NCBI GenBank assembly: GCA_945882655.1
Contig: CAMCWL010000001.1
Coordinates: 1-62,730 of the forward strand
Source of the DNA: Opitutus sp. GAS368
GTDB taxonomy: Bacteria > Verrucomicrobiota > Verrucomicrobiia > Opitutales > UBA953
Reading direction: 5' to 3'
Length of the DNA: 62,730 nt
Below are positions 257 through 27,702 of the stretch, one piece after another. The translations under genes were made by a program, and so were the position numbers. A model generated the notes under the pieces. It made no database searches. It saw nothing but the letters and a program-made list of their open reading frames with translations, and had not been told where the DNA came from. Within the stretch, counting starts at the first letter, position 1. Each line of letters begins with the position of its first letter.

Positions 257-2236
257 ATGACTGAAGAAACTCCCACGCCCCCTCCCGGCGATGTCCCTCC
301 GGCTGACCAGATCAAGGTCGATGCGGATTCGATCGTATCGAAGCGCCGGAAGCTCAGTCTCTGGCAGCGCATCGGGGCCAGCGGTCTTTCCGTCTCGCTA
401 GCGATCCACGTCCTGCTGGTCTTCGTGGCCGCAGCGTTTGTCGTCTCCACGGTCACCGACAACGCCAAGAAGGCCCCCAACACCTTTGCCACGGGCGCCG
501 GCGGCGGTTCGGGCGGCGAGCGCGTGAAGAGCACCGAGCGCAAGGTCAAACCCAAGAACGTCAAGTCCCTCGCCAAGACGACCACGCGTATCACTTCTAA
601 GAGCGCCTCAGCTTCAATCGCACTCCCCGACATGCCGAACTCGGCTTCGGCTTCCTCGATGATCTCCGGCGCGATGGCGGGCGGCTCGTCCAAAGGTTTC
701 GGCGGCGGCTCCGGCGGCGGCATCGGTACCGGCCGCGGCATGGGCTCTGGCGGCGGTAAGAACTTCGTCGCTCGGCCGGTCATGGGCGCGAACATCTTCT
801 CGCAGCGCCTGGCGGTCTACTTCGACGCCTCGGCCTCGATGCTTCCTTATCTCGACCGCGTTGAAGCGGAAATCCGCGACAAGTTCCCGGATGCCGACGT
901 ATTCCTCAGCAATGGCGTCTTTATCGACGTCCATGACAACGAGATCGTCGGTGGCGATAAATTCAAGGGTGCTCCGTTCCTGAATCGCCCGACTGGCAAC
1001 GGTTCCAAGAAGAACGCCAAGGGTGAACTCGTCCCGACCGAGACCAATGTAAACAAGCTCACCCCTGCCGGGCGAAATATCTACAAGAAGTACGCCCCCA
1101 ACTTCAAGACGGGCTCCGTCGGCGGTTGGATTGACATCCTCAAGGATGAACGGGCATACGACGCGCTCATCATCTTCTCTGACTTCCAGGACGGCGTCCG
1201 CCAGATCCGCACCAAGGCCATCGGCAACGTCTCGGCCTACAAGCCCGACAAGGGTATGCGTGCCGACCCGCCCGTCGTCTTCTCCGATCGCACCAATCAG
1301 GGTGGAGGCTTTGCCCGTTCGGTCACCCTCATCGCCAGCGGTGGTGCCTCTGGCCAGCCGGTCGTGCAGTGTAAGGAAACCACGGGCCTGATCGTCGGCA
1401 TGGTTGCCCTCGGCTCGGGCATCCCTCCAGGCACGACGGTCATCGAGATCAAGGATAACGTTAGCTTCACCCTCAGCAAGCCCCTCACCGCCGCCCCCTC
1501 CGGCCGCGTCGTCTGTAACAATGGTGGCGATAAGCGCTTCCCCGAAGAGAAGAAGTGGGAAGACGAGTGGGAGAAGGCCTTCGCCGGTGCCCGCGAGAAT
1601 AAGGGACCTCGTCTCTATCTCATCAGCACCTCGCGCGCCTACGGCAACAAGCCAGGCACCATCCTTCAGCGCTGCGTCTCCGCTTCTGACGGAAGCGCCA
1701 TCATGGTCAAGTTCGGCAACGCCAAGAAAGGTACCAATACGGTGAATGACCTGCATAACTATGACGATCTTTACGTCGGTATGCCGGTGAGTGGCCGCGG
1801 GATTCCCGAGGGCGTTACGCTTGTGGCGATGCCGACCTTCAAGGAAATCATCGACCCCGAGGATCCGGAGAAGAAGCGCAAGAAGCGCGTCGTCGACAAG
1901 CAGCTCACCATTTCCGCCCCGGTGCTCGAAGATTCCACCAACGCGGTCTTCGCCTTCACTCCGCTTATCCAGGCCGTCGGCACGCTCGCCAAGGCCGCGA
2001 AGACCATCGAAGACGTCTCGGGTTCAATCGACCTCAAGCCGGGCATGATCGTCGTGGATGGTCGTTTCCCGGTCGGCACCAAGGTGATTTCCGTGACCCC
2101 TAACAAGGCCGCCGTTGGTTTCTTTACGGTTGAAATGTCGGCGCCCTCTAACGCCGCCGCGGCTAACGCGGTCCTGCGTTTCCGTCCGGCCGCTTCGACC
2201 ACGGGCAATGCCCGCAGCGCCGCGCCTACTCGCTAA
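257..2236 (+). CDS. Membrane-anchored envelope protein, paralog 1 of 3: TonB/TolA-like SxxxH TM anchor, basic and Gly-rich linker, divergent vWA/MIDAS-like module, three beta-rich repeats
   Basis: ATG at 257, 659 aa, strong GC3 bias in this frame. One TM helix (about aa 38-65) contains S47-x3-H51 (LSVSLAIHVLLV). A Gly-rich tract spans aa 140-167. DASAS (aa 190-194) and YDALIIFSDFQDG are shared with the next two ORFs. Repeats of GM-V-G-GIP-GT type lie at aa 372-420, 501-567 and 589-642. A hairpin terminator follows. Coding status is solid; the function is inferred. Confidence 0.7.
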   Translation: MTEETPTPPPGDVPPADQIKVDADSIVSKRRKLSLWQRIGASGLSVSLAIHVLLVFVAAAFVVSTVTDNAKKAPNTFATGAGGGSGGERVKSTERKVKPKNVKSLAKTTTRITSKSASASIALPDMPNSASASSMISGAMAGGSSKGFGGGSGGGIGTGRGMGSGGGKNFVARPVMGANIFSQRLAVYFDASASMLPYLDRVEAEIRDKFPDADVFLSNGVFIDVHDNEIVGGDKFKGAPFLNRPTGNGSKKNAKGELVPTETNVNKLTPAGRNIYKKYAPNFKTGSVGGWIDILKDERAYDALIIFSDFQDGVRQIRTKAIGNVSAYKPDKGMRADPPVVFSDRTNQGGGFARSVTLIASGGASGQPVVQCKETTGLIVGMVALGSGIPPGTTVIEIKDNVSFTLSKPLTAAPSGRVVCNNGGDKRFPEEKKWEDEWEKAFAGARENKGPRLYLISTSRAYGNKPGTILQRCVSASDGSAIMVKFGNAKKGTNTVNDLHNYDDLYVGMPVSGRGIPEGVTLVAMPTFKEIIDPEDPEKKRKKRVVDKQLTISAPVLEDSTNAVFAFTPLIQAVGTLAKAAKTIEDVSGSIDLKPGMIVVDGRFPVGTKVISVTPNKAAVGFFTVEMSAPSNAAAANAVLRFRPAASTTGNARSAAPTR

Positions 2237-2258
2237 GCGCAGTTTCATCGGATCAAAA

Positions 2259-2287
2259 GGCGAAGCCCTCTGGCTTCGCCTTTTTTG
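2259..2287 (+). terminator. Rho-independent terminator after paralog 1
   Basis: GGCGAAGCC-CTCT-GGCTTCGCC hairpin (2259-2280) followed by TTTTTTG. Confidence 0.85.
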
Positions 2288-2373
2288 TGCTTAGGGCAAA
2301 GTCCCCATGCGAAAAAAACATAATAAAGTTCCAATGTCCCGCTCCCGCTCGCATCATTCATTCATCCCCGCCC

Positions 2374-3132
2374 ATGAACACCCCAAAAATCTTCACGATT
2401 TTCGTCCTGACCCTATTGGCTGCTTTCGCCCATGCAGCTAAGTCTGGCGGCGGGACGGTAGGCGGCGAGGGTGCGGCTCCGCGCATCGCGGTCTACTTGG
2501 ATTGCTCCAGCTCCATGGTCCCCTACCTCGACGCCGTCGAGGCCGAGGTCCGGAAGCAGTTTCCCGACGCCGACGTGTTCAAGGTGCCCGCCATCAAGGT
2601 CTGGGTCGATGGCGCCGTCATCCGCGGCGGCGCGACCTCTGTGCTGCCGCATAAGCCCGCGGCTTCGGGGCCAACGGTGTGCCTAGACACCAGTCGCCTC
2701 AGCCCGACCGGTAAGGCGATCCTGGCCCGCTATGCGGGCAATTTCGAGAAGGGTTCCGTGGGTGCCTGGATTGACATCCTTCGGACCGAGAAGCGTTACG
2801 ACGCGCTGGTGATCTTCTCCGACTTCAACGATCAGGTCCTACAGGTACGACTGAGCAAACCTCCCGTGCAGACTTACGTCGACGAAGCTGGTCAGCGCCA
2901 CTTACCAGAAACGCAACTCTCGGACGACCGTACCGTCACCGAGAAGGCGTGGGAAGACACCTGGGTCGGTTCATTCGATCTGGCCAATGCGGGCAAGGCG
3001 CCCGTGCTCTATCTTTTCTCCACGCATAATCCGGCCAGCCGTATCTTGCAGAAGTCGGCCGATGTCTCGGGCGGAAAGTTCAAGCTCATCGATTGGCTTC
3101 GTCCGGATGGCCCGCCCAAGCCTGCGAACTGA
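2374..3132 (+). CDS. Secreted vWA/MIDAS-like module protein, paralog 2 of 3
   Basis: The likely start is ATG 2374, giving the signal peptide MNTPKIFTIFVLTLLAAFAHA. The ORF-track start at 2287 adds an AT-rich extension that does not look coding. Shares RIAVYLDCSSSM..YLDAVEAEVRKQFPDADVF, GSVGAWIDIL, YDALVIFSDFND and APVLYLFS with the flanking ORFs. Confidence 0.7.
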   Translation: MNTPKIFTIFVLTLLAAFAHAAKSGGGTVGGEGAAPRIAVYLDCSSSMVPYLDAVEAEVRKQFPDADVFKVPAIKVWVDGAVIRGGATSVLPHKPAASGPTVCLDTSRLSPTGKAILARYAGNFEKGSVGAWIDILRTEKRYDALVIFSDFNDQVLQVRLSKPPVQTYVDEAGQRHLPETQLSDDRTVTEKAWEDTWVGSFDLANAGKAPVLYLFSTHNPASRILQKSADVSGGKFKLIDWLRPDGPPKPAN

Positions 3133-3203
3133 GGCCTATCCCTAAGGGGAATCAGCGGCCGGGATGCAGGGTGAACCTGTGAGCCCGTTCGCTTGAGTTC
3201 GAC

Positions 3204-3229
3204 CATGGCCCGCTAACCTGCGGGCCATG
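3204..3229 (+). promoter_or_regulatory. Perfect 10-bp inverted repeat enclosing the ATG of paralog 3
   Basis: CATGGCCCGC (3204-3213), loop TAACCT, GCGGGCCATG (3220-3229). The right arm contains ATG 3227-3229, and the tail TCTTTTCT follows. Confidence 0.5.
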
Positions 3230-4306
3230 TCTTTTCTGGAGCCTGTCGTGGCGCCTCGGCGCACCGTCCGTTCGTCCCGAGCGCTGCTGCTCTCGGTGGC
3301 TGTGCATGCCTTGATGGTCATCGCTGCCTGCTGGGTCGTCTTCCGTTCTCCGCCTTCGCCTCCACGGCAGGAGTTCACTGCGCATACGGTGGCGGGGGGC
3401 AAGTCGGGCGGCCCGTCGAAGACGCACCCCATTAACCGTAAGCCCAAGGTGCCGACGCCCCAGAAACGTCTGACGTCGAAGTCTGCCAGCGCGACCTTGG
3501 CGTTGCCGCCGATGAAGGCGATGACGCCGGATATGGGCTTGGCTGGATTGTCCGGCGGGCAAGGGAAGGGCGGCTTCGGGCGCGGGCTCGGCTCCTTCGG
3601 CGGCAATGGTCTCGGCGCGGGCTTGGGCAATCGCACCGGCTTCGTCGGCCGTCCGGTGATGGGCGCCTTCATCCGCGCGAAGCGTGTCGCAGTCTATCTC
3701 GATTGTTCGGGTTCGATGCGTTCCTATCTACCGCGCGTCGAGGCCGAGATCCGGAAGCAGTTTCCCGATGCGGATGTCTTCCGTTTCGATGGCGCCCGGG
3801 TGGTGGGCTTGGGGGACATGGTGGTCTTCGGTCGACGGTTCCGCGGCGAAGCCCCGCGTCTACGCGAAGGTCCAACGCAGACCGCGCTCGAGACGCTGAC
3901 GCCCAACGGGCGTTCCGTGCAGGCCAAGGTCCGGACGGCCTGCGAGAAGGGCTCGTTGGGCGCGTGGATGGATCGGCTACTCGCGGAATCTTACGATGCC
4001 CTAGTCGTATTCTCTGATTTTCAGGACGGCGTCCGTTTGTATGAGTCGAAAAAGGGTGAGCCGAAGATGGTCTATTCGGATAGCTCTTACCACAAGGTCG
4101 GCGGCGTCCAGAAAGGGCACACCCGTTGGCAGCGCGAGTGGCTGGAGGCCTTTGCCAAGGCCCCGCAAGGCGCTGGGCCGAGGCTTTATCTATTCACCGT
4201 CCAGCAGGAGCCGCAGGCCTTCCTCCAGGCATGCGTGGCGGCCTCCGGCGGTGCCTCGACTTCGGTATCTTGGCTGAAGAAAGGCGGCCGGAAGGCGCCG
4301 CCTTGA
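3227..4306 (+). CDS. Membrane-anchored envelope protein, paralog 3 of 3: TonB/TolA-like SxxxH TM anchor, Gly-rich linker, vWA/MIDAS-like module
   Basis: 359 aa. The TM helix LLLSVAVHALMVIAACWVV has S23-x3-H27. It shares the motif TSKSASATLALPPM with paralog 1. A Gly-rich tract spans aa 108-135. Also carries RVAVYLDCSGSM (classic DxSGSM), FPDADVF, GSLGAWMD, YDALVVFSDFQDG and GPRLYLF. GTG 3248 is an alternative start. Confidence 0.7.
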   Translation: MSFLEPVVAPRRTVRSSRALLLSVAVHALMVIAACWVVFRSPPSPPRQEFTAHTVAGGKSGGPSKTHPINRKPKVPTPQKRLTSKSASATLALPPMKAMTPDMGLAGLSGGQGKGGFGRGLGSFGGNGLGAGLGNRTGFVGRPVMGAFIRAKRVAVYLDCSGSMRSYLPRVEAEIRKQFPDADVFRFDGARVVGLGDMVVFGRRFRGEAPRLREGPTQTALETLTPNGRSVQAKVRTACEKGSLGAWMDRLLAESYDALVVFSDFQDGVRLYESKKGEPKMVYSDSSYHKVGGVQKGHTRWQREWLEAFAKAPQGAGPRLYLFTVQQEPQAFLQACVAASGGASTSVSWLKKGGRKAPP

Positions 4307-4331: not shown

Positions 4332-4763
4332 TTGGATAGGCGCATGGTCCCCTTCACGGCAGAATACCGCGCTCATTTCTCCGACACCGACGCCGCGGGC
4401 ATCGTGCATTTCTCCACGATCTTCTTCTGGGTTGAGGCGACCGAGGAGGCGATTTTCCGTCAGCTCAAACTGCCGTTCCTACGCACCGAAGGCACTAAGC
4501 TGACCGGATTTCCCCGTGTCCGAGTCGAGTGCGATTTCCTTTTCCCGATTTACCGTGATGACATCGTCACCGTCTCCCTTACGCCGATCGAGATCGGCGA
4601 CAAGAAGCTTGTCTGGGGCTTCGCCGCCGCGGTCGGCGAACGTGCCGTCGCGAAAGGCGCCCTGACGACCGTGTATGCCTGGCGCGAAGCGCAGGGGCCG
4701 ATGTCGGCTGCGCTCGTGCCGCTCGACATCAAGACGGCGTTGCAAAAGCACTTCGGCGTGTGA
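4332..4763 (+). CDS. Acyl-CoA thioesterase, 4HBT hot-dog fold (YbgC-like)
   Basis: The N-terminal motif HFSDTDAAGIVHFSTIFFWVEATEEAIFRQL is typical of YbgC/4HBT thioesterases, and the size (about 140 aa) fits. The start may be ATG 4344. Confidence 0.7.
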   Translation: MDRRMVPFTAEYRAHFSDTDAAGIVHFSTIFFWVEATEEAIFRQLKLPFLRTEGTKLTGFPRVRVECDFLFPIYRDDIVTVSLTPIEIGDKKLVWGFAAAVGERAVAKGALTTVYAWREAQGPMSAALVPLDIKTALQKHFGV

Positions 4764-6157
4764 TGGCTGACGCGGCGAACCAGTCGGGCACGGTCTCCCG
4801 TATCGGCTTGGTCGTCGTCGTCCTCGCCGCCTTGCTCTGGTCCGCGCTGAGTTTCGTGCCTCCAGGGCCTTTACATGCGGACGAGGCGGTCCAGTGGTCT
4901 CTCGCCAAGGAGCTCTCCGAGGGCACGCCCTATAGTGCTCATCAGGACAAGTTCCACGGGCCGACGCTGGCCACCGTCCTGCTCATCTCGGCCAAGCTGA
5001 CGAGTACCGCACCGATGGAAATGAACGAACACTATCTCCGCAGCGTCGTCTCGATCTTCCTCGGCCTCATGGCGGCCGCGGCCCTCATCCTTCCGGGTGT
5101 CGGTCGGTCGGCCCGTTACGCTACCGCAGGATTCGTCGTACTGACGGGAGGCTGCACTCCGTTCGGCTATTACTTCGTCCAAGAGATGCTCTTGGTGACG
5201 AGCTTCGTCTGGGGCGTCGCCCTGTGGATGCGCGCCGAAGGGTCGCCGCCGGATTCCCGTTGGTGGATGCTCTCTGGCGCAGCTTTCGGTTTCGCCCTCG
5301 CCTGCAAGGTCACCGCGGCGGCTTACCTATTCTTGTTCATCGTAGGCTTAATACTCCTCCGCCGTTTCGTTGCCGACCGGCGCTGGCTCCGTTTTGGCTT
5401 CGGCTTGGTCGCATCGTGGGTCTGCTTCCAGTCCGTCGGCTTCACGGATTTCCGTGGCCTGGAGACATGGTGGGTGCAACTGGCGCGTTCTCTTGGCGTC
5501 GCCAGTGGCCAATCTGAAGACACCTTGCTCGCCGTCAGCCTGGCGCCATGGGGCTGGGCCGCCGCTTGGTTGGCGGTCTTCGCGTTCGCTCGTTCTGGTC
5601 TATCGCTAGTCGGTTGGCGGAGCCGTCATGAAGCCGACCTGCCGTGTCTGGTCTCCTTCCTTGTCTTCCTGTTTCACCTCGCGCTGCCCTACAAGACTCC
5701 TTGGCTCCTGCTGCTGGTCTTTTCTCTGCCCCTGACGCTCGCGTTGCCCTATCTCCTCGTCGGACGCACCGTGCGGGCGCTGGTGCTTACCCCCGCCTTG
5801 GTGACGGTCGCGCTGATGGCCCAGGCGTCGCTGTCTTCCCATTCACCGACAATCTCGGAAATCCTTCACTTCCAGAAAAAGGTCGCGAACCTCGCCAAGG
5901 CTTACGGGGCTAAATTCTATATCGCTGTGGAAGGGGGGCATTATTGGCCTCTCCCCTATTATCTTAGGGCGCATCGGGTCGGCTACGAAGACTTCCCGCA
6001 GGCCGCGAAAGCGCCCCTTCGCCTCATCCCCGCTCACGATGCCAGCGAGCCGATGGTTCCGGGTTATGTGGTCTCCAGCCTTACCCTCCGCACCGGCGGC
6101 GATCGCTATTGGGTGCTGGTTGCCAAAGACTACGAAAGCGTTTTTATCAATAAATAA
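4760..6157 (+). CDS. Polytopic membrane protein, glycosyltransferase-39/ArnT-like (TIGR03663-like)
   Basis: About 11-13 hydrophobic helices. The first periplasmic loop has the motif HADEAVQWSLAKEL..YSAHQDKFHGPTL, which resembles the DE...HGP loop of PMT_2/TIGR03663 proteins. The start is GTG 4760 or ATG 4763, overlapping the thioesterase stop. Confidence 0.5.
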   Translation: MMADAANQSGTVSRIGLVVVVLAALLWSALSFVPPGPLHADEAVQWSLAKELSEGTPYSAHQDKFHGPTLATVLLISAKLTSTAPMEMNEHYLRSVVSIFLGLMAAAALILPGVGRSARYATAGFVVLTGGCTPFGYYFVQEMLLVTSFVWGVALWMRAEGSPPDSRWWMLSGAAFGFALACKVTAAAYLFLFIVGLILLRRFVADRRWLRFGFGLVASWVCFQSVGFTDFRGLETWWVQLARSLGVASGQSEDTLLAVSLAPWGWAAAWLAVFAFARSGLSLVGWRSRHEADLPCLVSFLVFLFHLALPYKTPWLLLLVFSLPLTLALPYLLVGRTVRALVLTPALVTVALMAQASLSSHSPTISEILHFQKKVANLAKAYGAKFYIAVEGGHYWPLPYYLRAHRVGYEDFPQAAKAPLRLIPAHDASEPMVPGYVVSSLTLRTGGDRYWVLVAKDYESVFINK

Positions 6158-19910: not shown

Positions 19911-21225
19911 GTTGGAATTCGTCTCTACCGTCGATGCTTCCTGTCGCGGTTCCCTGCGTGACGTGCTGCTTTCGGCCATACCCGCTAAGGGCGGCCTCTG
20001 GGTGCCCACGCACATCCCGCAAATCGCGCCCGACTTCGTGGAGCGCCATCGCGACGCTTCCTATGCCGACCTCGCCGAGGCCGTCGTGGCCCCCTATTTC
20101 GCCGAAGTCCTTGGACCGGCCGTCCTTCGTCAGCTCTGTCAGGAAGCTTTCAACTTCCCGGTGCCACTCGTGCACCCCGAGGGATTCAAGGGCACACCGG
20201 CTGAACGCATCGCCGTCCTTGAACTCTTTCAAGGCCCGTCCGCGGCCTTCAAGGACTTTGCTGTCCGCACCCTCGTGCGCGTCACCGCGCGTGTTCTTGG
20301 GGACGAGTTCCCGCAGTTGACCGTCCTCGCCGCGACTTCCGGTGATACGGGCGCCGCCGTCACGGAAGCTTGTTCCGGCGTCCCCGGCGTCCGCGCCGTG
20401 GTGCTCTATCCGCGCATCGGTGTCAGTGGCGTGCAGGAATCGCAGATCGCCCGCGCCCGTCCCGGCGTGGTCGCGCTGTCTGTCGATGGTACGTTCGATG
20501 ATTGCCAGGCGATGGTGAAGCGCGCGCTCGCCGATGAATCCCTGCGCCGTCGCCGCCCATTGCTCACGGCCAACTCCATCAATCCGGTCCGTCTGATCGC
20601 CCAGGTTCCGTTCGCCTTCCACGCCAAGCGTCTGTTGGCTCCGGGCCGCCGGATGGGCATCGTGGTCCCTTCGGGTAATCTCGGTAACGTCGGCGCCGTG
20701 CAGCTCGCCCGCCGCATGGGTCTCGATGTCGCCGCCCTTATCGCCGCGACCAACACGAATTCACCCTTACCCGAGCTTTTCGCTACCGGCGAATATCGTC
20801 CGCGCCGCGCCACGCCCACGGCCTCTAACGCCATGGACATCGGTGACCCGAACAACCTCAGCCGCCTGCTTGCCTGGCGTGAGGGTGGCCCGTCGGTCAG
20901 CGCCGTCACCGTCGACGACAAGGCCACGCTCGATGCCATGCGCCGCGTTCGCGACGCGGGCGGTTATATTCTTTGCCCGCACTCCGCGGTCGGCTGGAAG
21001 GCCGCGGAGGATCTGCTGGCTCGCGACGGCGATAAGCTCGACGACGTCATCGTCTTCGGTACCGCGCATCCGGCCAAGTTCCCGGATGTGTTGCGGGAAG
21101 CCTTTGGGGACGCCCACGCTTCGCGTTTCCCAGGTGAGCTGCCCGCGCCCGCACCGATCAAGATCGGCAACGACTTCGAGGCCGTCCGTAAGGTCCTCGA
21201 ATCTGAAGCCGGTTTCGGTCGCTAA
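19891..21225 (+). CDS. thrC: Threonine synthase
   Basis: Has the PLP-lysine region GPSAAFKDFA and the ATSGDTGAA motif. The start is trimmed to ATG 19891, a 20-nt overlap with thrB. Confidence 0.9.
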   Translation: MSSPSPKLEFVSTVDASCRGSLRDVLLSAIPAKGGLWVPTHIPQIAPDFVERHRDASYADLAEAVVAPYFAEVLGPAVLRQLCQEAFNFPVPLVHPEGFKGTPAERIAVLELFQGPSAAFKDFAVRTLVRVTARVLGDEFPQLTVLAATSGDTGAAVTEACSGVPGVRAVVLYPRIGVSGVQESQIARARPGVVALSVDGTFDDCQAMVKRALADESLRRRRPLLTANSINPVRLIAQVPFAFHAKRLLAPGRRMGIVVPSGNLGNVGAVQLARRMGLDVAALIAATNTNSPLPELFATGEYRPRRATPTASNAMDIGDPNNLSRLLAWREGGPSVSAVTVDDKATLDAMRRVRDAGGYILCPHSAVGWKAAEDLLARDGDKLDDVIVFGTAHPAKFPDVLREAFGDAHASRFPGELPAPAPIKIGNDFEAVRKVLESEAGFGR

Positions 21226-21468: not shown

Positions 21469-21912
21469 TTATTCCGTGTCGGACACCGCGAACGTGACGT
21501 TCGAGATGTTCGCCTTAGCGAGGCAATCGAGGACATTAATCACTCGTTCGTAGCGGGCATTCTCTTCGGCTTGGACCGTGATGAGGAGCTTCGTCTTGGA
21601 CTGCTCGGCGGCCTGTCCCAACTGCTTCATTTGGTTATAGAGGTTCTCGAGGAGCTTGTCGCCAGGGGGGCCGACGGGGTCTTCATTAAGGGTGATTTCG
21701 CCGGTCTCGCTGACGCCGATGGTGACTTCGTCGGGGAGCTCGGTCTCCTTGGCGGTCTCGGCGTTGCCGGGGAGGGTGGTCTTCAGCTCATGTTCGACCT
21801 TCACGGCGCCAGCCATGACCATGAAAAAGAGCATGATCACGAAGACCACGTCGATCATGGGAGCGATCTGGAAGCCGGGATTAGAATCGGCCTGTTCGGG
21901 GGCTTGTTTCAT
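21469..21912 (-). CDS. exbD: ExbD/TolR-family biopolymer transport protein (copy 2)
   Basis: The N-terminal FQIAPMIDVVFVIMLFFM carries the conserved TM Asp. Size is 147 aa. Confidence 0.88.
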   Translation of the reverse strand: MKQAPEQADSNPGFQIAPMIDVVFVIMLFFMVMAGAVKVEHELKTTLPGNAETAKETELPDEVTIGVSETGEITLNEDPVGPPGDKLLENLYNQMKQLGQAAEQSKTKLLITVQAEENARYERVINVLDCLAKANISNVTFAVSDTE

Positions 21913-21915
21913 GGC

Positions 21916-22356
21916 TTATTCTTCGTGGTTGAGGCCGGAGAAGGCGATGTTGTCGATGCCGGCTTCGGCGCCCCATTCGAGGGCCTTAGAGATGTACTTC
22001 GCGTGGCATTCTTTGTCGGCGCGAATCAGTAGGCGGTACTTCTCGTTCGTGCCTTTGCGGTCGGAGAGTTCTTTCGCGATGCCTTCCTTGTCGTTCGGGT
22101 CGATCTCGCGATCGTCGATCTTGTACTTGGCCTGGCCCGTGGTCTTATCCCAGGAGATATTGATGAGTCCCGCAGCGGCCTTGTCGTCGCGCTTGATGCC
22201 GTTGGAGGCGACCGGCAGAGAGATGTTCTTGTCCACCTTGAGCACCTGCGCCGAGGTGATGGACATGAAGAAGATGAGCAGCACCAAGAGCACGTCGATC
22301 ATCGGCGCGACCTGGAACTCCGGTTCCCCTTCTCCGCCTCCTCCTCCGCCTGCCAT
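21916..22356 (-). CDS. exbD: ExbD/TolR-family biopolymer transport protein (copy 1)
   Basis: FQVAPMIDVLLVLLIFFM carries the conserved TM Asp. Size is 146 aa. Confidence 0.88.
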   Translation of the reverse strand: MAGGGGGGEGEPEFQVAPMIDVLLVLLIFFMSITSAQVLKVDKNISLPVASNGIKRDDKAAAGLINISWDKTTGQAKYKIDDREIDPNDKEGIAKELSDRKGTNEKYRLLIRADKECHAKYISKALEWGAEAGIDNIAFSGLNHEE

Positions 22357-22388
22357 GGCTGTGCTTTTTGGTTAGGGGTGGAAGGGAC

Positions 22389-23180
22389 TTACGACTGGAA
22401 GTTCGAGGACGCGTTCCAGTCGGGCTTGGCGGCGTAGATTTCTTCGTCGCCGACCTTACGGCCTTCAACTTCTTCGTAGGGGAAGGCGCGGAACAGGCCG
22501 GTCACGATCTCGGTGATGTCGTGGATGCCTTTGTTAATGCGGTTCGCCAGGAGGTAGTAGGAGATGAAGGCCGGGATCGCGATGAAGAGACCGGAGGCGG
22601 TCGCCACGAGCACTTCACCGATAGCGCCAGAGAGCTTGGAGGGGTCACCCACACCGGAGGTGCCGAGGGTTTCGAACGCGCTCATCATGCCGGTCACGGT
22701 ACCGACCAGGCCGATCATCGGGGTACAGACGCCGATCACGGAGAGGTAGGAGGAACGGCCCTTGAGCTCGGCTTGGACTCGGGTGATTTCGGAGATGATG
22801 GCTTCTTCGGTCATGGTCTTGCCATCCGGGGTGAAGGCGACGCCCGCGCGGACAACGTCAGCGACGGGAGAGCCGGCGGTCTTAGCGAAGGCATAGGCAC
22901 CGACGTAGTCACCTTTTTTGAAGAGCTCGCGGAGCTGAGTGACATGGTCGACGGGGTAGAGCTTACCAGCGCTCGTGCGGATGTAGCCGTCGACGATAAA
23001 CCAGATCATCGCCACGGAACAGGCGGTGATCGGGTACATGACCCAGCCGCCCTCAATGAAGAGGTCCATGAGGGTCTTACTACTGTGGGCGCCACCGGCG
23101 GCTTCCTGGGCCGAGGCTGCGATGGTCATCAGGCCGAGGAGGACGGCGCTGAAGGAGGTATTGCGGAGATTCATCTTCAT
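22389..23180 (-). CDS. exbB: MotA/TolQ/ExbB proton-channel protein with N-terminal signal-like extension
   Basis: Has IGLVGTVTGMMSAF and AIGEVLVATASGLFIAIPA, the two signature helices of ExbB/TolQ. Confidence 0.9.
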   Translation of the reverse strand: MKMNLRNTSFSAVLLGLMTIAASAQEAAGGAHSSKTLMDLFIEGGWVMYPITACSVAMIWFIVDGYIRTSAGKLYPVDHVTQLRELFKKGDYVGAYAFAKTAGSPVADVVRAGVAFTPDGKTMTEEAIISEITRVQAELKGRSSYLSVIGVCTPMIGLVGTVTGMMSAFETLGTSGVGDPSKLSGAIGEVLVATASGLFIAIPAFISYYLLANRINKGIHDITEIVTGLFRAFPYEEVEGRKVGDEEIYAAKPDWNASSNFQS

Positions 23181-23232
23181 GATGATGGGGTGTAGGTTGG
23201 TTTTAGGTTAGGTTTTGGAAAGGGGCAAGGAC

Positions 23233-24249
23233 TCACTTATTGCCTTCGACCTTCTCTTCGGCGGCAAGTTTAGGCTTAGCCATGATGACGCCGTCCGGGA
23301 GGGGGCCGCCGGCGGCGATCTTCTTTTGATCGGCCTCGGCCTTGGCACGTTCTTCCTTGGGAAGCATCTTCTTGGCTTCCTCGGCCTCCTTGGAGACCGG
23401 GTAGGAGACGATGATGTCGTAGAGATAGCGATTGGAGATGGCCTCGAGCTTCTGGTCGCGGAGGGCTGGGCTGTCCATGCCGCGGAATGAGCGGGCGGCG
23501 CCCAGCATAGCTTTGGGGACGATTTCCGACTCGGAGCCGAAGAAGACCGGCACGCGGAGGTAGGTGGTCATCGCGGCCTCGTACTTCTTGGAGGCGAAGA
23601 GCGAGTTGCCTTTGACGAGGTGGAGGCGGGCCTGGAGTTCGGCGGTGTCCACCTTGGTCAGGAGTTCGGTCGCTTCTTTGACGACCGCGTCGTGGTCTCC
23701 CTTGCGAGCGCGCTGCATCAGGCGGGCGAGCTGAATCTGGGTGGCGACTTCGGGGAGCTTAGCGGCCTCTTCCTTCTCGAAGGCGTTGAGGAATGCTTCC
23801 GTGGCGGCATCGTTCTCGAGGCGGTCGAGGGCGTCGAGTTTGACGATGGACGCGCGGGCCCACCAGGAGCCGGGGACGTTCTTGATCGGTTCGAAGAACT
23901 TCAGGACGGCTTCGACGTTATCGAGGGCCTTGGCGGGTTCGCCCCGGCTCACGTTGGCTTGGGCTTCTTGAAGGCGGGAGGGCATGGGCCAGATCACTTC
24001 GGTGACTTCAGACAGCTTGCGGGTGATGGTCGCATCGAAGCCGGCGGCGCTGCTGACTCGGTCGATGGTACCTTTGACGACGTTGATTGTGCCTTTCTTG
24101 GCGTCGACGACCGGCTTGGGTGGGATGGAGTTATCCATCTTGAACGGGTCATTGATTTCCCAGCGTTCACCTTTGAAGACGAAGGTCTGGGCCGGCGACG
24201 AGGCGGCGGCGAGGAGCGCGAGGGCGGGGAAGAGGAGGGAGAGGCGCAT
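23233..24249 (-). CDS. Secreted TPR-like helical-repeat protein (338 aa)
   Basis: Signal peptide MRLSLLFPALALLAAASSPAQ. Helical-repeat content. The gap to the upstream gene is 5 nt. Confidence 0.65.
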   Translation of the reverse strand: MRLSLLFPALALLAAASSPAQTFVFKGERWEINDPFKMDNSIPPKPVVDAKKGTINVVKGTIDRVSSAAGFDATITRKLSEVTEVIWPMPSRLQEAQANVSRGEPAKALDNVEAVLKFFEPIKNVPGSWWARASIVKLDALDRLENDAATEAFLNAFEKEEAAKLPEVATQIQLARLMQRARKGDHDAVVKEATELLTKVDTAELQARLHLVKGNSLFASKKYEAAMTTYLRVPVFFGSESEIVPKAMLGAARSFRGMDSPALRDQKLEAISNRYLYDIIVSYPVSKEAEEAKKMLPKEERAKAEADQKKIAAGGPLPDGVIMAKPKLAAEEKVEGNK

Positions 24250-24254
24250 GGCGA

Positions 24255-27200
24255 TTAGAGTCCGAGGAGGAAGGCTTTGGCTTCTTCCGCTTCGCGGGTA
24301 TCCTTGATGCGATCCTTCTCGAGCATCTCCTTCAGGAGCACCTTAGCAGCGTCCTTCTGGTTGAGCTTCGTGGCGAATAGCTTGGCGGAAGCGAAATAGG
24401 ACTTAGCGGCCCAGACCTCATATTTCTTCCAGGTCATGAAGCAGCGGCGGTAGTAGGCGATGGCCTCGTTATAGCCCTTCTCGTCGGTCGCCTGGCGTTC
24501 GGCCATCAGGCCGAGCCAATAGAGGGAGGCGGCCGTCTTTTCGCCGCGCCATTCCTTGGTCTTGGCGATTTCTTCGAACTCTTCCTTGGCTTCCTTGTAC
24601 TTGGCGAGCTCGGCGAGGGCGCGGGCGCGGGTGAAACGGAGGTCGAGCTCCTTCGACATCAGGATGTTGTTGTCGATGGCCTCGTTGCAGAGCGAGAGGG
24701 CTTCGGCGTACTTCTTGTTGGCGAAGGCGATCTCGGCCAGACCGGCGAAGCCGTAGTCGGCGTATTCCGAGGAGCGGGAATGCTCGAGGATGTAGGCGAA
24801 ATAATCGGCGGCCTTCTTGTTGTCGCCCTTGGAGAGGAGGCTGTCGCCGACGAGTCCGAGGATCGTCGGGTTGAGTTCCTCGGCCTTGTAGTTGGCGGCG
24901 ATCTTGGCGAAGTTGGCGGCGGTCTTCTCGGGTTCGCGGGTGAAGATAGCGAGTTCGCCGAGCGCGAAGAAGCCGCGGGCTTGCGCGACGAGGGAGTTGC
25001 GGTGCTCTTCGAGGCGGAGCAGCTTGACCATCTCCTTTTCGGCGTCGGCGCTGGTGTAGGCGCCGGGTTCGGGCTTGGCGCCCGGCTTCACGCGCTTGAC
25101 CTTGCGGGCGAGCTTCTCGGCGAGGAAAACGATGAGCTTCTCGGTGCCTTCCTGGGTGCGGTCGTTGATGGATTCAGAGACGGCATCGGAAAGAATCTTG
25201 AGCGCGCGCTTCTTCTGGTCGGCGATGGAGGTCTGGCGCTTGGCCTCGACCTTGGCGAGTTCGGCCTCGAGTTCGGTGGAGAGCTTCCGGACGGCCGTCT
25301 TGGCGACGTCGATCTCGGGTTGGGTGACCCCCTGCTTACGCTCGAGTGTGTCGACGGCCTTACGGGCGTCGGCGAGTTGGGCGCTGAACTTCTTGCGGAT
25401 CTTCTCGGATTCGGCAGCGAACTCAGGCATGTCGCCCATGCGTTCGGTGGAGCGGATGACCTCGTAGAGGTAGGTCATCGCCTTCGGGTCGTTGTGGTTC
25501 CAGTCGAAGATTTCCTTGAACAGGTCGCGCATGCGCTTGTGTTCGCCGCGGCCGGGGAGGAGTTTGCGGAGTTCGCCGAGCACGAATTCGAGGGCCTGCG
25601 GATTGGTGCGAGCGCTCTTGGCGGCGGCTTCGTAGGCGTCGATAGCCTTATTGGTGACGGCTTCCTTCTCCTTCTCAAACTTGGTCCTAATCTCGACGAA
25701 TTTGGCCTTGTCGGGGGTCTTGGCGTTGACGCGGACGTCGAGGTCAGCGGCCTTGACCTTCTTGTCGATCTCGTCGGCAAGGGCGATGTTGGCGTCGCCG
25801 ATCAGCGTGTAGACCTCGGGCATCTGGGAGATGACTTCGTCGGTGTTGGTCTTGGCGTAATCCTTGATCCAGTCTTCGCAGAGCTTGATGGTGCCGGGGA
25901 TATCGCGCGGGCTGGTGCCGAACTTGACGATGGCCTGGCGGTAGCGGACGTCGGGGATGAACTGACCCTTCGGGTATTCCTGCTCGTACTTGTCGAAGTC
26001 GGCCTTGGTCTCCTTGTACTTGCCCTGGAAGAACGAGCAGAGCGCGTTCATGTAAAGCACCTGCTGGCGGACCGGGGAGCGTTCGTGCTTCTTGAGGAAC
26101 TCCTCGAATGCTTTCTGGGCGGGCGCCCAATCGACCTGAGAGAAGAGGCAAGCCGCGATGCGGAAGTCGATTTCTTCGATGACCTCGGGGGTGAGAGTCT
26201 TTACGTTGCTCAGGACCCACTTGTAGTGGGTGATGGCCTCGGGGAACTCTTCGCGTTCCTGAGAGATGTCACCGAGGATTAGGGCTATGGGAGAGACCTG
26301 ATCATCCTTCGGGAACTTCGCGATGAACTCCTTACACTTCGCCTGGGCCTCGTTGTTGCGGCCGATGCGGCGTAGGGCGAGGATGTGGTAGTAGTAGGCT
26401 CCGGAGATCCGGCTGAAGCTGGGGCTATTTTCAAAGATATCAAGGAAGGCCACGTGGGCTTCCCACGGGCGATTCAGTTCGAGGAGACAGAGGCCGATGC
26501 GGTAGGAGATGAACGCGTCGTAGTCCTTGTTGGCGTTGAACTCTTCCTGGATCTTCTTGAACTGCACGACCTCCTGTTTGGTCTTCTCGAGATTGGCGGC
26601 CTGTTCGGGGTTCGGCTTGGGGAAGTTCTTCGTCATCGTATCGACCTCCGCCTGCTTGGCCTCGATGGCGCGACCGAAAGAGCTGCTCAGGTTAGCGCGA
26701 CGCAGCGTACCCTGGTAATTGGTGAGGGCCTGACGATAGAAGTCGCCGCGGAAATTCTCGTCGGCGGCCGTTTCGGCGGCGGAGAAGCGGGCGTCGCCGA
26801 TTTCGAGGCGCTGAAAATTGGAGCGAACGACTTCGACGGGTGAACCGGTGCTCTTCGCGTCGATTTCGTTCTTCAGCTGGGTCGCTTCCTTGGTCAGGCC
26901 AAGCTTGGTGTACATGTCGACCAGCTTGTAAGCGGCCTCACGGCTTTCCGGGGTGCTGATGCCGCCGGCGGTCGCTTGCTTCAGGAGAGTGATAGCCTGG
27001 GCGAAGGCCGCGCGCTTGACTTCGTCCGGCGAGCTCTTGGCGCGGTCGACGAGGATTTGGGCGGAAAGGGTGAAGGCGCTGACGCGCTCTTCGGGGCGAG
27101 CGAGTGTGTTGGTGCGAATCTTCTCAAGGCGGGCGAGCGCGAGCTCCCATTTGCCCTGCTTGGAAAAGGCTTCGATGAGCAGAAGTTCGGCGGTGCCGCG

Positions 27201-27593
27201 GCGATTATCGGTATCAGACAGGAAGTCCTCCGTGCCCTTGGGGAACTTGTCGAGGAAGGCGGTCAGTTCGGTTTCAGCCCGCGGCCAATCCTTGATGAAG
27301 AAATGACAGAGCGATTTCTGGAACGAGACGACGGCCTTCAGCTTCGGCTCGACGTCGACGGCTTTGGCGTCGAGATCCTCGAACAGTGCGAGGGCCTCCC
27401 GGTACTTCTTTTCTTCAAGGTTCTTGATCGCATCCTTGTAGAGGAGGGACAGCGGGTCCTCTTGGGGCTTCTGAGCGGTGGGCAGCGGGCGAGTCTGCGC
27501 CTTGAGGTCGCCGCTGACAGGGGTCAGGGCAATGAGGACGGCGAGCAGGGCGGCCTTGGCCAATTTATAGGTGCGGGACTCTTTGATAAGCAT
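24255..27593 (-). CDS. Large secreted TPR-repeat protein (about 1112 aa)
   Basis: The start is trimmed to ATG 27593 (MLIKESRTYKLAKAALLAVLIALTPVSG, a signal or anchor). There are many TPR-like A-x-Y/F...G...A-x repeats over the whole length. Confidence 0.7.
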   Translation of the reverse strand: MLIKESRTYKLAKAALLAVLIALTPVSGDLKAQTRPLPTAQKPQEDPLSLLYKDAIKNLEEKKYREALALFEDLDAKAVDVEPKLKAVVSFQKSLCHFFIKDWPRAETELTAFLDKFPKGTEDFLSDTDNRRGTAELLLIEAFSKQGKWELALARLEKIRTNTLARPEERVSAFTLSAQILVDRAKSSPDEVKRAAFAQAITLLKQATAGGISTPESREAAYKLVDMYTKLGLTKEATQLKNEIDAKSTGSPVEVVRSNFQRLEIGDARFSAAETAADENFRGDFYRQALTNYQGTLRRANLSSSFGRAIEAKQAEVDTMTKNFPKPNPEQAANLEKTKQEVVQFKKIQEEFNANKDYDAFISYRIGLCLLELNRPWEAHVAFLDIFENSPSFSRISGAYYYHILALRRIGRNNEAQAKCKEFIAKFPKDDQVSPIALILGDISQEREEFPEAITHYKWVLSNVKTLTPEVIEEIDFRIAACLFSQVDWAPAQKAFEEFLKKHERSPVRQQVLYMNALCSFFQGKYKETKADFDKYEQEYPKGQFIPDVRYRQAIVKFGTSPRDIPGTIKLCEDWIKDYAKTNTDEVISQMPEVYTLIGDANIALADEIDKKVKAADLDVRVNAKTPDKAKFVEIRTKFEKEKEAVTNKAIDAYEAAAKSARTNPQALEFVLGELRKLLPGRGEHKRMRDLFKEIFDWNHNDPKAMTYLYEVIRSTERMGDMPEFAAESEKIRKKFSAQLADARKAVDTLERKQGVTQPEIDVAKTAVRKLSTELEAELAKVEAKRQTSIADQKKRALKILSDAVSESINDRTQEGTEKLIVFLAEKLARKVKRVKPGAKPEPGAYTSADAEKEMVKLLRLEEHRNSLVAQARGFFALGELAIFTREPEKTAANFAKIAANYKAEELNPTILGLVGDSLLSKGDNKKAADYFAYILEHSRSSEYADYGFAGLAEIAFANKKYAEALSLCNEAIDNNILMSKELDLRFTRARALAELAKYKEAKEEFEEIAKTKEWRGEKTAASLYWLGLMAERQATDEKGYNEAIAYYRRCFMTWKKYEVWAAKSYFASAKLFATKLNQKDAAKVLLKEMLEKDRIKDTREAEEAKAFLLGL

Positions 27594-27672
27594 CGGTTGA
27601 GGGGAGCGTTTAGCTCCGCATCTGGGGGTATGTAGAATTAGCCTAGCCGGCCGCAGATTGCCAAGCAATAAG

Positions 27673-27702
27673 CCCCTTTTGAAAGACAATCATTCAAAGG
27701 GG
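27673..27702 (-). terminator. Probable terminator after the ArsR-methyltransferase gene
   Basis: CCCCTTTTGAA / TTCAAAGGGG imperfect hairpin. On the minus strand it is followed by CTTATTGCTT. Confidence 0.45.

Follow-up and report, generated by a model that had tools for sequence, protein, structure and literature searches.

Three paralogous genes at the left end of the window

The window analysed here, a stretch of 62,730 nucleotides (nt) from a freshwater Opitutae bacterium (Verrucomicrobiota), contains near its left end three neighbouring open reading frames (ORFs) on one strand, p1 (659 aa), p2 (252 aa) and p3 (359 aa), which share a module of about 220 aa (Table 1). As judged from sequence comparison, p1 and p3, in which this module is attached to a TonB/TolA-like membrane anchor, belong to a published class of putative transducers of proton motive force (PMF) with von Willebrand A (vWA) heads, and an ExbB-ExbD-ExbD cluster elsewhere in the window is likely to be their cognate motor. 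The three ORFs were confirmed where an earlier reading of the bare sequence (the original prediction) had placed them, and the five conserved motif blocks that it listed for the module were each found in p1, p2 and p3. The modules share 42–47% identity (BLASTP expected values of 2e-35 for p1-p2, 8e-44 for p1-p3 and 4e-39 for p2-p3).

In p1, about 100 inserted residues interrupt the module and a C-terminal extension of about 170 aa comes after it; the module profile A4 matches in two separate parts (aa 167–322 and 422–490). The extension matched no known family in Pfam or PDB sequence searches. A short segment (L.VGM.V.G.GIP.GT.V...), each time followed by ...T[LIV]S.P, occurs three times in p1, once inside the module and twice in the extension; the repeat had no Pfam or PDB match, and self-comparison by BLASTP gave no statistical confirmation of it. 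For p3, 571 homologs were found, of which the 120 listed are 78–99% identical, and its module is 98% identical to that of 'Opitutae bacterium BS6'.

The second paralog consists of the module alone behind a cleavable signal peptide, as had been proposed: read from the ATG at 2374, p2 starts with MNTPKIFTIFVLTLLAAFAHA, followed by AK after the cleavage site, which is a Sec-type signal peptide as predicted by the AxA rule alone. This ATG was preferred over an alternative GTG start at 2287, because the latter abuts a strong hairpin with a T-run (2255–2284) and the p2 orthologs have lengths of 249–250 aa. A second hairpin, in the gap between p2 and p3, overlaps the p3 start codon and might end p2 transcription or occlude initiation of p3 translation.

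The DNA of p2 and p3 also shares a 32-nt block (2536–2567 and 3737–3768) in which, as first noted, one base differs. It is embedded in a stretch of 99–100 nt with 73–76% identity and codes for the best-conserved peptide of the module, VEAE[VI]RKQFPD, in a genome with a G+C content of about 0.75 at third codon positions. Recent gene conversion was considered for this block and rejected, since the surrounding DNA is just 73–76% identical; given these flanks and the peptide encoded, the block is attributed to protein constraint and codon bias.

Anchor helix and linker

Both p1 and p3 have the same layout in front of the module: a short tail, a transmembrane helix with the motif S-x3-H (S47/H51 in p1 and S23/H27 in p3), a segment with a conserved Phe, a basic stretch, the motif TSKSASA[ST][IL]ALP (aa 113–124 in p1 and 83–94 in p3) and a Gly-rich tether. 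The helix and the shared motif with the linker next to it were both part of the original prediction and are present as described. The stretch between helix and head measures about 100–110 aa. An anchor profile search found no further anchor-bearing ORFs in the window besides p1 and p3.

Conservation of the Ser and His residues among orthologs had been named as a check, and it was examined with two alignments, A7 (40 diverse anchored family members, also used as a profile) and A10 (13 anchors from the Opitutia family to which p1–p3 belong, from Tichowtungia and from metagenomic motor loci). In A7, both the His corresponding to p3 His27 and the Leu-Pro within the ALP motif are invariant, and the Ser corresponding to Ser23 is conserved in at least 90% of the members. 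In A10, the helix His and the ALP Pro are invariant and the Phe following the helix is nearly so. The S-x3-H motif, carried by nearly all full-length anchored members, was also found in 27 of 28 further family members, including those with cytoplasmic extensions of 130–350 aa.

The Pfam and NCBIfam models gave nothing on p1–p3 at E≤1, except for a sub-threshold match of the TolA model TIGR02794 (tolA_full) to the p3 anchor (aa 18–56; E 0.058, 12.6 bits against a cut-off of 59.45).

The extended members are from Puniceicoccales (P0163, P0139, P0140 and P0147), in which a helical or coiled-coil-like cytoplasmic region of 130–350 aa precedes the S-x3-H helix. The extension of P0163 contains a zinc-ribbon-like motif (CxxC...CxxC). 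These extensions recall the cytoplasmic domains of the TonB-like gliding-motility protein GltJ.

The vWA-like module

The module had been predicted to be a divergent vWA domain with a metal ion-dependent adhesion site (MIDAS). Searches of PDB sequences with the single proteins and with the family profile were empty, the p1 matches being low-complexity Gly. A first AlphaFold2 (AF2) run with a 3-sequence alignment (predicted local distance difference test score, pLDDT, 63) was not trusted and was repeated with 128 sequences, giving a model of the p3 module with a pLDDT of 93.8 and a predicted template-modelling score (pTM) of 0.92. In this model the elements run N-terminal hairpin, β1-α1-β2-β3-long α-β4-hairpin-α-β5-α-β6, an order that is vWA/Rossmann-like, with DxSxS in the β1-α1 loop and SDFxDG directly after β4. 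The alignment columns of p3 D159, S161, S163, D264 and D267 are invariant across the family.

When the model was searched against PDB with Foldseek, the best match was the VWA domain of CLCA1 (6pyx; E 7e-3, probability 0.95, TM scores 0.35/0.45), followed by Sec23/24, Rpn10, ANTXR1, PitA and vWF-A1. Against BFVD, the top matches were nearly all VWFA proteins (best E 9.7e-4, probability 0.98). The probabilities for vWA matches reach 0.95–0.99 in the two libraries. The profile and structure checks came out in part: vWA is the top Foldseek class in both libraries, but no Pfam VWA model matches p1–p3. Of the vWA/MIDAS assignment itself, the strand and helix order, the invariant DxSxS and the acidic motif after β4 are borne out and the Foldseek lists are dominated by vWA, while the fold match is weak. 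We conclude that the module is probably a vWA-like domain which has diverged strongly but still has a MIDAS-type motif; the predicted site may bind metal.

With the canonical vWA and integrin I domains (Pfam VWA, VWA_2 and VWA_3) the module shares the β-α-β Rossmann-like order, the DxSxS after β1 and the acidic residue after β4. In the canonical MIDAS, the residues DxSxS...T...D cluster at the C-terminal ends of β1 and β4 and bind a divalent cation. The module differs in three additional elements (a hairpin at the N-terminus, a helix of 26 residues and, following β4, a β-hairpin), in its low TM scores and in two further invariant acidic motifs that are atypical of vWA, FPDAD (p3 aa 179–183) and YDAL (aa 256–259). 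The model places these two where β2 and β4 begin (their N-terminal ends), and thus across the domain from the MIDAS-type site, on its opposite face.

Homology to published vWA force transducers

The architecture of p1 and p3 had been thought undescribed. It was in fact published in 2025, as a computational proposal, for vWA 'force transducers' from bacteria of the Planctomycetes-Verrucomicrobia-Chlamydiae (PVC) group, among them Tichowtungia aerotolerans (Mol Biol Evol 2025;42:msaf138, PMC12204202), where a motor-coupled transducer mechanism was independently proposed on the basis of AlphaFold3 (AF3) models. [quoted passage not shown] The stator box is placed at about residues 55–60 of the Tichowtungia transducers (supplement of PMC12204202).

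In Tichowtungia, the gene order is TPR938-262aa-ExbB-ExbD-ExbD-T1-T2, T1 and T2 being transducers, with a third transducer (781 aa) nearby. By BLASTP, p3 matched T2 with an expected value of 4e-7 and the other p1/p3 comparison gave 3e-6, the alignments being collinear between the helix and the strand with which the head begins. Using hhalign, the Opitutia family and the Tichowtungia family were aligned over 232 columns, from the transmembrane helix to β4, with a probability of 97.7% (E 1.9e-12); at β4, YDALVxFSDF is paired with ADNIFVLCSGW. S47/H51 of p1 and S23/H27 of p3 align with S31/H35 of the Tichowtungia family, and the conserved Phe after the helix aligns with the invariant F58 of T1 and T2, at the published stator-box site.

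The two families share the short cytoplasmic tail, the S-x3-H helix, the Phe, a basic stretch with ...S.S.AS..LP.M, the Gly-rich tether, an α/β head starting with (K/R)xxVFxxD, the presence of several heterologous copies per genome, and a motor type consisting of TPR, ExbB and two different ExbD proteins. They differ in that i) the Tichowtungia transducer genes directly follow exbD, whereas p1–p3 are located 17 kb from the motor genes, ii) the heads have diverged too far for BLAST, iii) the DxSxS and acidic motifs kept in the Opitutia family (DxSxS, SDFxDG) are lost in the Tichowtungia family (DASKxM, CSGWG), and iv) a secreted anchor-less paralog and the inserted repeat domains of p1 are found in the p1–p3 family, which is restricted to Opitutia. 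New with respect to PMC12204202 is a separate subfamily in Opitutia, which goes unrecognised by Pfam. Its retained MIDAS-type motif, its separation from the motor, its secreted paralog and the inserted repeats of p1 are also new. The published paper contains no mention of Opitutae, MIDAS, metal, PA14 or cyclase, and vWA is the sole head type mentioned in it (PMC12204202).

The motor cluster and its metagenomic relatives

The cluster at 21469–27689 is orthologous to and colinear with the Tichowtungia genes TPR-262aa-ExbB-ExbD-ExbD. The 1144-aa TPR-type protein, ExbB, ExbD1 and ExbD2 each match their own positional Tichowtungia counterpart best (Table 1). No transducer gene follows exbD2 in the window, because thrC converges on it from the opposite strand, ending at 21225. 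It is likely that the genes at 21469–23180 encode the cognate motor of p1 and p3.

A metagenome scan seeded with ExbD2 yielded 80 loci, and counts were made on the 48 whose sequence continues downstream for 900 nt or more beyond the ExbD2 match. In 19 of these 48, the ORF right after exbD2 matches the anchor/linker profile of the Opitutia family or of the Tichowtungia family. Such an ORF is present in 11 of the 16 loci in which ExbD2 is at least 41% identical to that of the window, with expected values of 6e-13 to 5e-26 to the A7 profile. The three closest relatives (ExbD2 79–90% identical) have no such ORF, as in the window. The metagenomic loci share the five-gene motor cluster with the window. 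Some of the transducer heads (L096, L123 and L134) score above the Pfam VWA gathering threshold, and hhalign aligned the p1–p3 family module with these Pfam-positive VWA heads over the first 57 columns, β1-α1-β2-β3 (82.8%, E 9.4e-6).

Other heads were also seen on p1/p3-like anchors at these loci. A PA14 domain is fused to such an anchor in L106:5329-6534 (26.2 bits against a cut-off of 24), L096:9486-10727, L155:10376-11833 and L114:2621-3892. Heads resembling the α/α-toroid of squalene-hopene cyclase occur in L155:8679-10307, L109:4910-6460 and L108:995-2572, with scores of 36.6 and 33.1 bits (cut-off 26.1). The PA14- and cyclase-headed genes are often in tandem with a VWA-headed one, and the loci carry TPR-ExbB-ExbD-ExbD.

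Table 1. Features of the p1–p3 locus and of the motor cluster in the window
Feature	Position	Strand	Evidence and remarks
p1	257–2236	+	ORF; 42-aa cytoplasmic tail, S-x3-H transmembrane anchor, linker and vWA-like module; family profile A7, E=6e-143
p1 transmembrane helix GLSVSLAIHVLLVFVAAAFVVST	383–451 (aa 43–65)	+	hydropathy and motif; Ser47 at 395–397, His51 at 407–409
p1 motif after the helix, NTFATGAGGGSGG	479–517	+	Phe77 lines up with F58, which is invariant in the Tichowtungia transducers
p1 motif TSKSASASIALPDMP with invariant Pro	593–637	+	P124 invariant in A10; aligns with Tichowtungia RMASVSQASFSLPDM
p1 Gly-rich flexible linker	638–763	+	sequence; Gly columns nearly invariant in A7
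p1 module part A, β1 to β4 hairpin	764–1222	+	DASAS at 824–838, SDFQDG at 1178–1195
p1 insertion within the module	1223–1519	+	alignment gap against p2/p3, split A4 match; repeat copy 1 GLIVGMVALGSGIPPGTTVIEI at 1385–1450
p1 module part B, α4-β5-α5-β6	1520–1729	+	A4 profile match
p1 C-terminal extension	1730–2233	+	repeat copies 2 (1769–1831) and 3 (2033–2095)
Terminator-like hairpin after p1	2255–2284	+	13-bp stem, then T-run
p2	2374–3132	+	signal peptide (2374–2436) and module alone; DCSSS at 2500–2514, SDFNDQ at 2818–2835
Hairpin in the p2/p3 gap	3204–3229	+	10-bp stem, overlaps p3 ATG
p3	3227–4306	+	ORF; minimal anchored form (tail, transmembrane helix, linker, module); A7, E=5e-140
p3 transmembrane helix ALLLSVAVHALMVIAACWVVF	3281–3343 (aa 19–39)	+	Ser23 at 3293–3295, His27 at 3305–3307
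p3 motif after the helix, QEFTAHTVAGGKSGG	3368–3412	+	Phe50; anchor alignment A10
p3 motif TSKSASATLALPPM	3473–3514	+	L93/P94 invariant in A7
p3 Gly-rich linker	3515–3640	+	sequence
p3 vWA-like module	3641–4291	+	DCSGS at 3701–3715 in the β1-α1 loop, SDFQDG at 4013–4030 directly after β4
4HBT hot-dog thioesterase	4332–4763	+	syntenic neighbour in Opitutales only
ExbD2	21469–21912	-	Pfam; positional counterpart E 4e-29, other ExbD 6e-9
ExbD1	21916–22356	-	Pfam; positional counterpart E 7e-13, other ExbD 4e-9
ExbB	22389–23180	-	Pfam; best Tichowtungia match is ExbB, E 7.5e-37
Secreted TPR-type partner, 338 aa	23233–24249	-	conserved with the motor cluster
TPR-type secreted partner, 1144 aa	24255–27689	-	positional Tichowtungia counterpart E 1.5e-20

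Distribution and gene neighbourhood

An exhaustive profile search of 1.84 billion representatives, clustered at 50% identity, detected the Opitutia family in 130 clusters at E≤1e-3 and in 52 at E≤1e-30. When each species was represented by a single genome, a relative was encoded in 164 stretches, and gene contexts were counted in the 80 best loci, nearly all of which are labelled as metagenome-assembled genomes of Opitutae, Opitutales or Verrucomicrobiota; a few labels are evidently wrong. The family occurs in Opitutia only, the longer forms being from Puniceicoccales, and its heads are mutually just 33–45% identical. Where members have a public database name, it is solely 'hypothetical protein'.

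The gene order in the 80 loci is p1-(p2)-p3-thioesterase-(membrane protein)-ApbE-TPR(-). Relatives frequently lack p2, and at a few loci p3 stands alone. Upstream, relatives have TilS-FtsH-CoaE-PilB-PilT-PilB-PilC, then a gap of about 500 bp and p1; examples of pilB-pilT-pilB-pilC (MshEN/T2SSE/T2SSF) are L001:774-6533, L082:3764-9525 and L083:3685-9436. In the window, positions 1–256 begin inside this pilC-p1 gap and include a tRNA-Met gene (42–119) on the minus strand. Pilus genes are not near the distant family members (L084, L085 and L087–L091).

Between the thioesterase and ApbE genes, the window encodes a 465-aa multi-pass membrane protein (4760–6157) with no Pfam or NCBIfam match; it is kept in most, but not all, of the syntenic loci, at 41–87% identity. 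A 444-aa gene without a Pfam match is paired with distant family members (L087:11352-12686 and L089:2728-4062) and may be a second, diverged transducer paralog.

Alternative readings

Several results weigh against p1 and p3 being motor-coupled transducers with vWA heads. Their genes are not directly after an exbD gene, and adjacency of the family to exbBD genes was not found: neither exbB nor exbD is located within 10 kb of family members in the 80 genome loci and 7 more distant contigs. Of the TonB 'SHLS' motif only part is kept, the Leu and second Ser positions being Ala and Val. The Pfam VWA models do not match p1–p3 even at E≤1, and a Pfam search of 83 family members gave just 2 weak VWA_4 matches (E 0.006). 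Foldseek searches of PDB with the confident model gave nothing at E≤1e-3, the vWA matches being weak, with TM scores of 0.35–0.45 and a root-mean-square deviation of about 8 Å. A canonical TonB, if the genome encodes one, may use the motor, and the published class of vWA force transducers is itself known in silico only, from AF3 models (PMC12204202). What stands of the originally predicted PMF-transducer scaffold with a replaced head is the conservation of the anchor and the homology to motor-adjacent transducers; the motor adjacency within the family does not.

The absence of exbBD adjacency throughout the family would also fit p1 and p3 being passive periplasmic vWA-like binders tethered to the inner membrane, similar to BatA/BatB or YfbK, with p2 as a soluble binder; they would have a common origin with motor-coupled transducers, but motor use would have been lost and the S-x3-H helix would be just a signal anchor or an oligomerisation helix. 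We regard this as the main rival reading, though as rather unlikely. Each of the genes apparently has its own terminator-like hairpin, and the existence of the anchor-less secreted p2 means that the head can work untethered. However, the invariant helix His and the conserved Ser, Phe and ALP Pro, maintained while the heads fell to 33–45% identity, are hard to explain for a mere anchor, and the window has a motor without a transducer of its own whose orthologs elsewhere are accompanied by p1/p3-like ones.

The gene order conserved in relatives from TilS to PilC and p1 raises the question of whether p1–p3 belong as accessory proteins to a type IV pilus or to a type II secretion machine, for instance as vWA components of a periplasmic or adhesin-like kind, such domains being present in proteins of the PilY1 type. 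This explanation seems improbable: the tRNA-Met gene lies on the opposite strand inside the gap between pilC and p1, the distant members and the Tichowtungia homologs are away from pilus genes, and p1–p3 have neither a prepilin leader nor Pfam similarity to PilM/N/O/P/Q or PilY1. Since synteny extends over all of the region between FtsH and MutL/UvrB, the adjacency to pilus genes may simply be inherited gene order.

It is still less probable, to the point of being very remote, that the locus represents a Tol-Pal remnant or variant in which p1 and p3 are TolA analogues and the thioesterase downstream of p3 is YbgC, as its presence had been taken to hint. The weak tolA_full match of the p3 anchor, the weak matches of the thioesterase to TIGR02799 and TIGR00051 and the adjacency of p3 and the thioesterase in Opitutales are in favour of such an origin. 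The neighbour is indeed a 4HBT thioesterase, but its scores are far below the cut-offs of the YbgC equivalog (30.4 bits against 141.35) and of the second model (27.6 against 68.7), and the gene is absent beside distant family members. As had been noted, TonB_C, TolA, TolB and Pal/OmpA are lacking among the Pfam-scanned ORFs of the window (a few housekeeping ORFs were judged by eye only), as are CpoB and TolA domain III, and the two different ExbD/TolR genes and the TPR partners are unlike tolQRA. The tol-pal hint is unsupported because of these scores and the lack of TonB_C, TolA domain III, TolB and Pal in the window; with an adjacency limited to one order, the reading by way of the thioesterase was rejected. 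The thioesterase is probably outside the system.

Proposed function

The most parsimonious reading, which we regard as fairly probable, is that p1 and p3 are motor-coupled transducers, served by the orphan TPR-ExbB-ExbD1-ExbD2 motor at a distance of 17 kb. They would be single-pass inner-membrane proteins with the N-terminus inside, of the TonB/TolA functional type, serving as periplasmic force or energy transducers. As in TonB and TolA, the transmembrane helix would use its His/Ser face to dock on the ExbB pentamer of the 21469–27689 cluster, which would have lost its own downstream transducer genes, and the Phe-containing segment may contact the periplasmic domains of ExbD as a 'motor box'. 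The basic stretch, the ...S.SA..ALP.M motif and the Gly-rich tether of about 45 residues would carry the vWA-like head, which may use its MIDAS-type DxSxS...D site to hold, with the help of a metal, a partner in the periplasm or the outer membrane. Free in the periplasm, p2 would be the same head and probably partners or competes with the tethered ones. We infer the physical coupling of p1 and p3 to the motor, as well as the ligand and a cellular role that may be envelope tethering, uptake or surface motility.

With TonB and TolA, p1 and p3 share the topology, the S-x3-H anchor helix, a disordered linker that spans the periplasm and a predicted dependence on a 5:2 motor of the MotA/ExbB type. 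They differ in lacking TonB_C and TolA domain III (Pfam and NCBIfam, E≤1), in the modelled fold of the head, in a linker that is Gly-rich rather than Pro-rich or helical, and in not keeping the Leu and second Ser of SHLS; what they act on is presumably neither a TonB box nor TolB/Pal. Similarities to GltG and GltJ of the Myxococcus Agl-Glt machinery include non-canonical TonB-like anchors and a TolQR-type motor and, for the Puniceicoccales members, long cytoplasmic N-terminal domains. GltG and GltJ keep TonB_C-type domains. For GltJ, cytosolic motifs are among the features outlined in the literature. Neither glt, agl nor cglB genes turned up in the window context.

In a wider view, which we hold tentatively and would not call probable, TPR-ExbB-ExbD1-ExbD2 of Verrucomicrobiota and other PVC bacteria could form, next to Ton and Tol, a third general envelope system powered by PMF. 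In such a system, interchangeable transducers with a common anchor and tether and different heads (MIDAS-type vWA-like, Pfam-typical VWA, PA14 or squalene-cyclase-like) would work on one motor, and freshwater Opitutia, with transducer genes dispersed away from it, would have added p2. If true, it would be a trans-acting network, perhaps regulated by competition between tethered and free heads.

To our knowledge, TonB and TolA are the sole well-understood routes by which PMF energy of the inner membrane reaches the outer envelope of diderm bacteria. A third class, with heads other than those of TonB, was proposed in 2025, in silico. The freshwater Opitutia, which are abundant, represent a lineage in which motor and transducers are unlinked, a situation missed by operon-based searches. 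The occurrence of the same anchor with PA14 and cyclase-like heads suggests a modular system. The intact DxSxS...D head offers clear point mutants and a test of metal dependence, and the anchor-less p2 could serve in soluble form as a reagent or as a competitor. Should the coupling prove real, these proteins would provide a handle on how PMF is used in the envelope of these bacteria.

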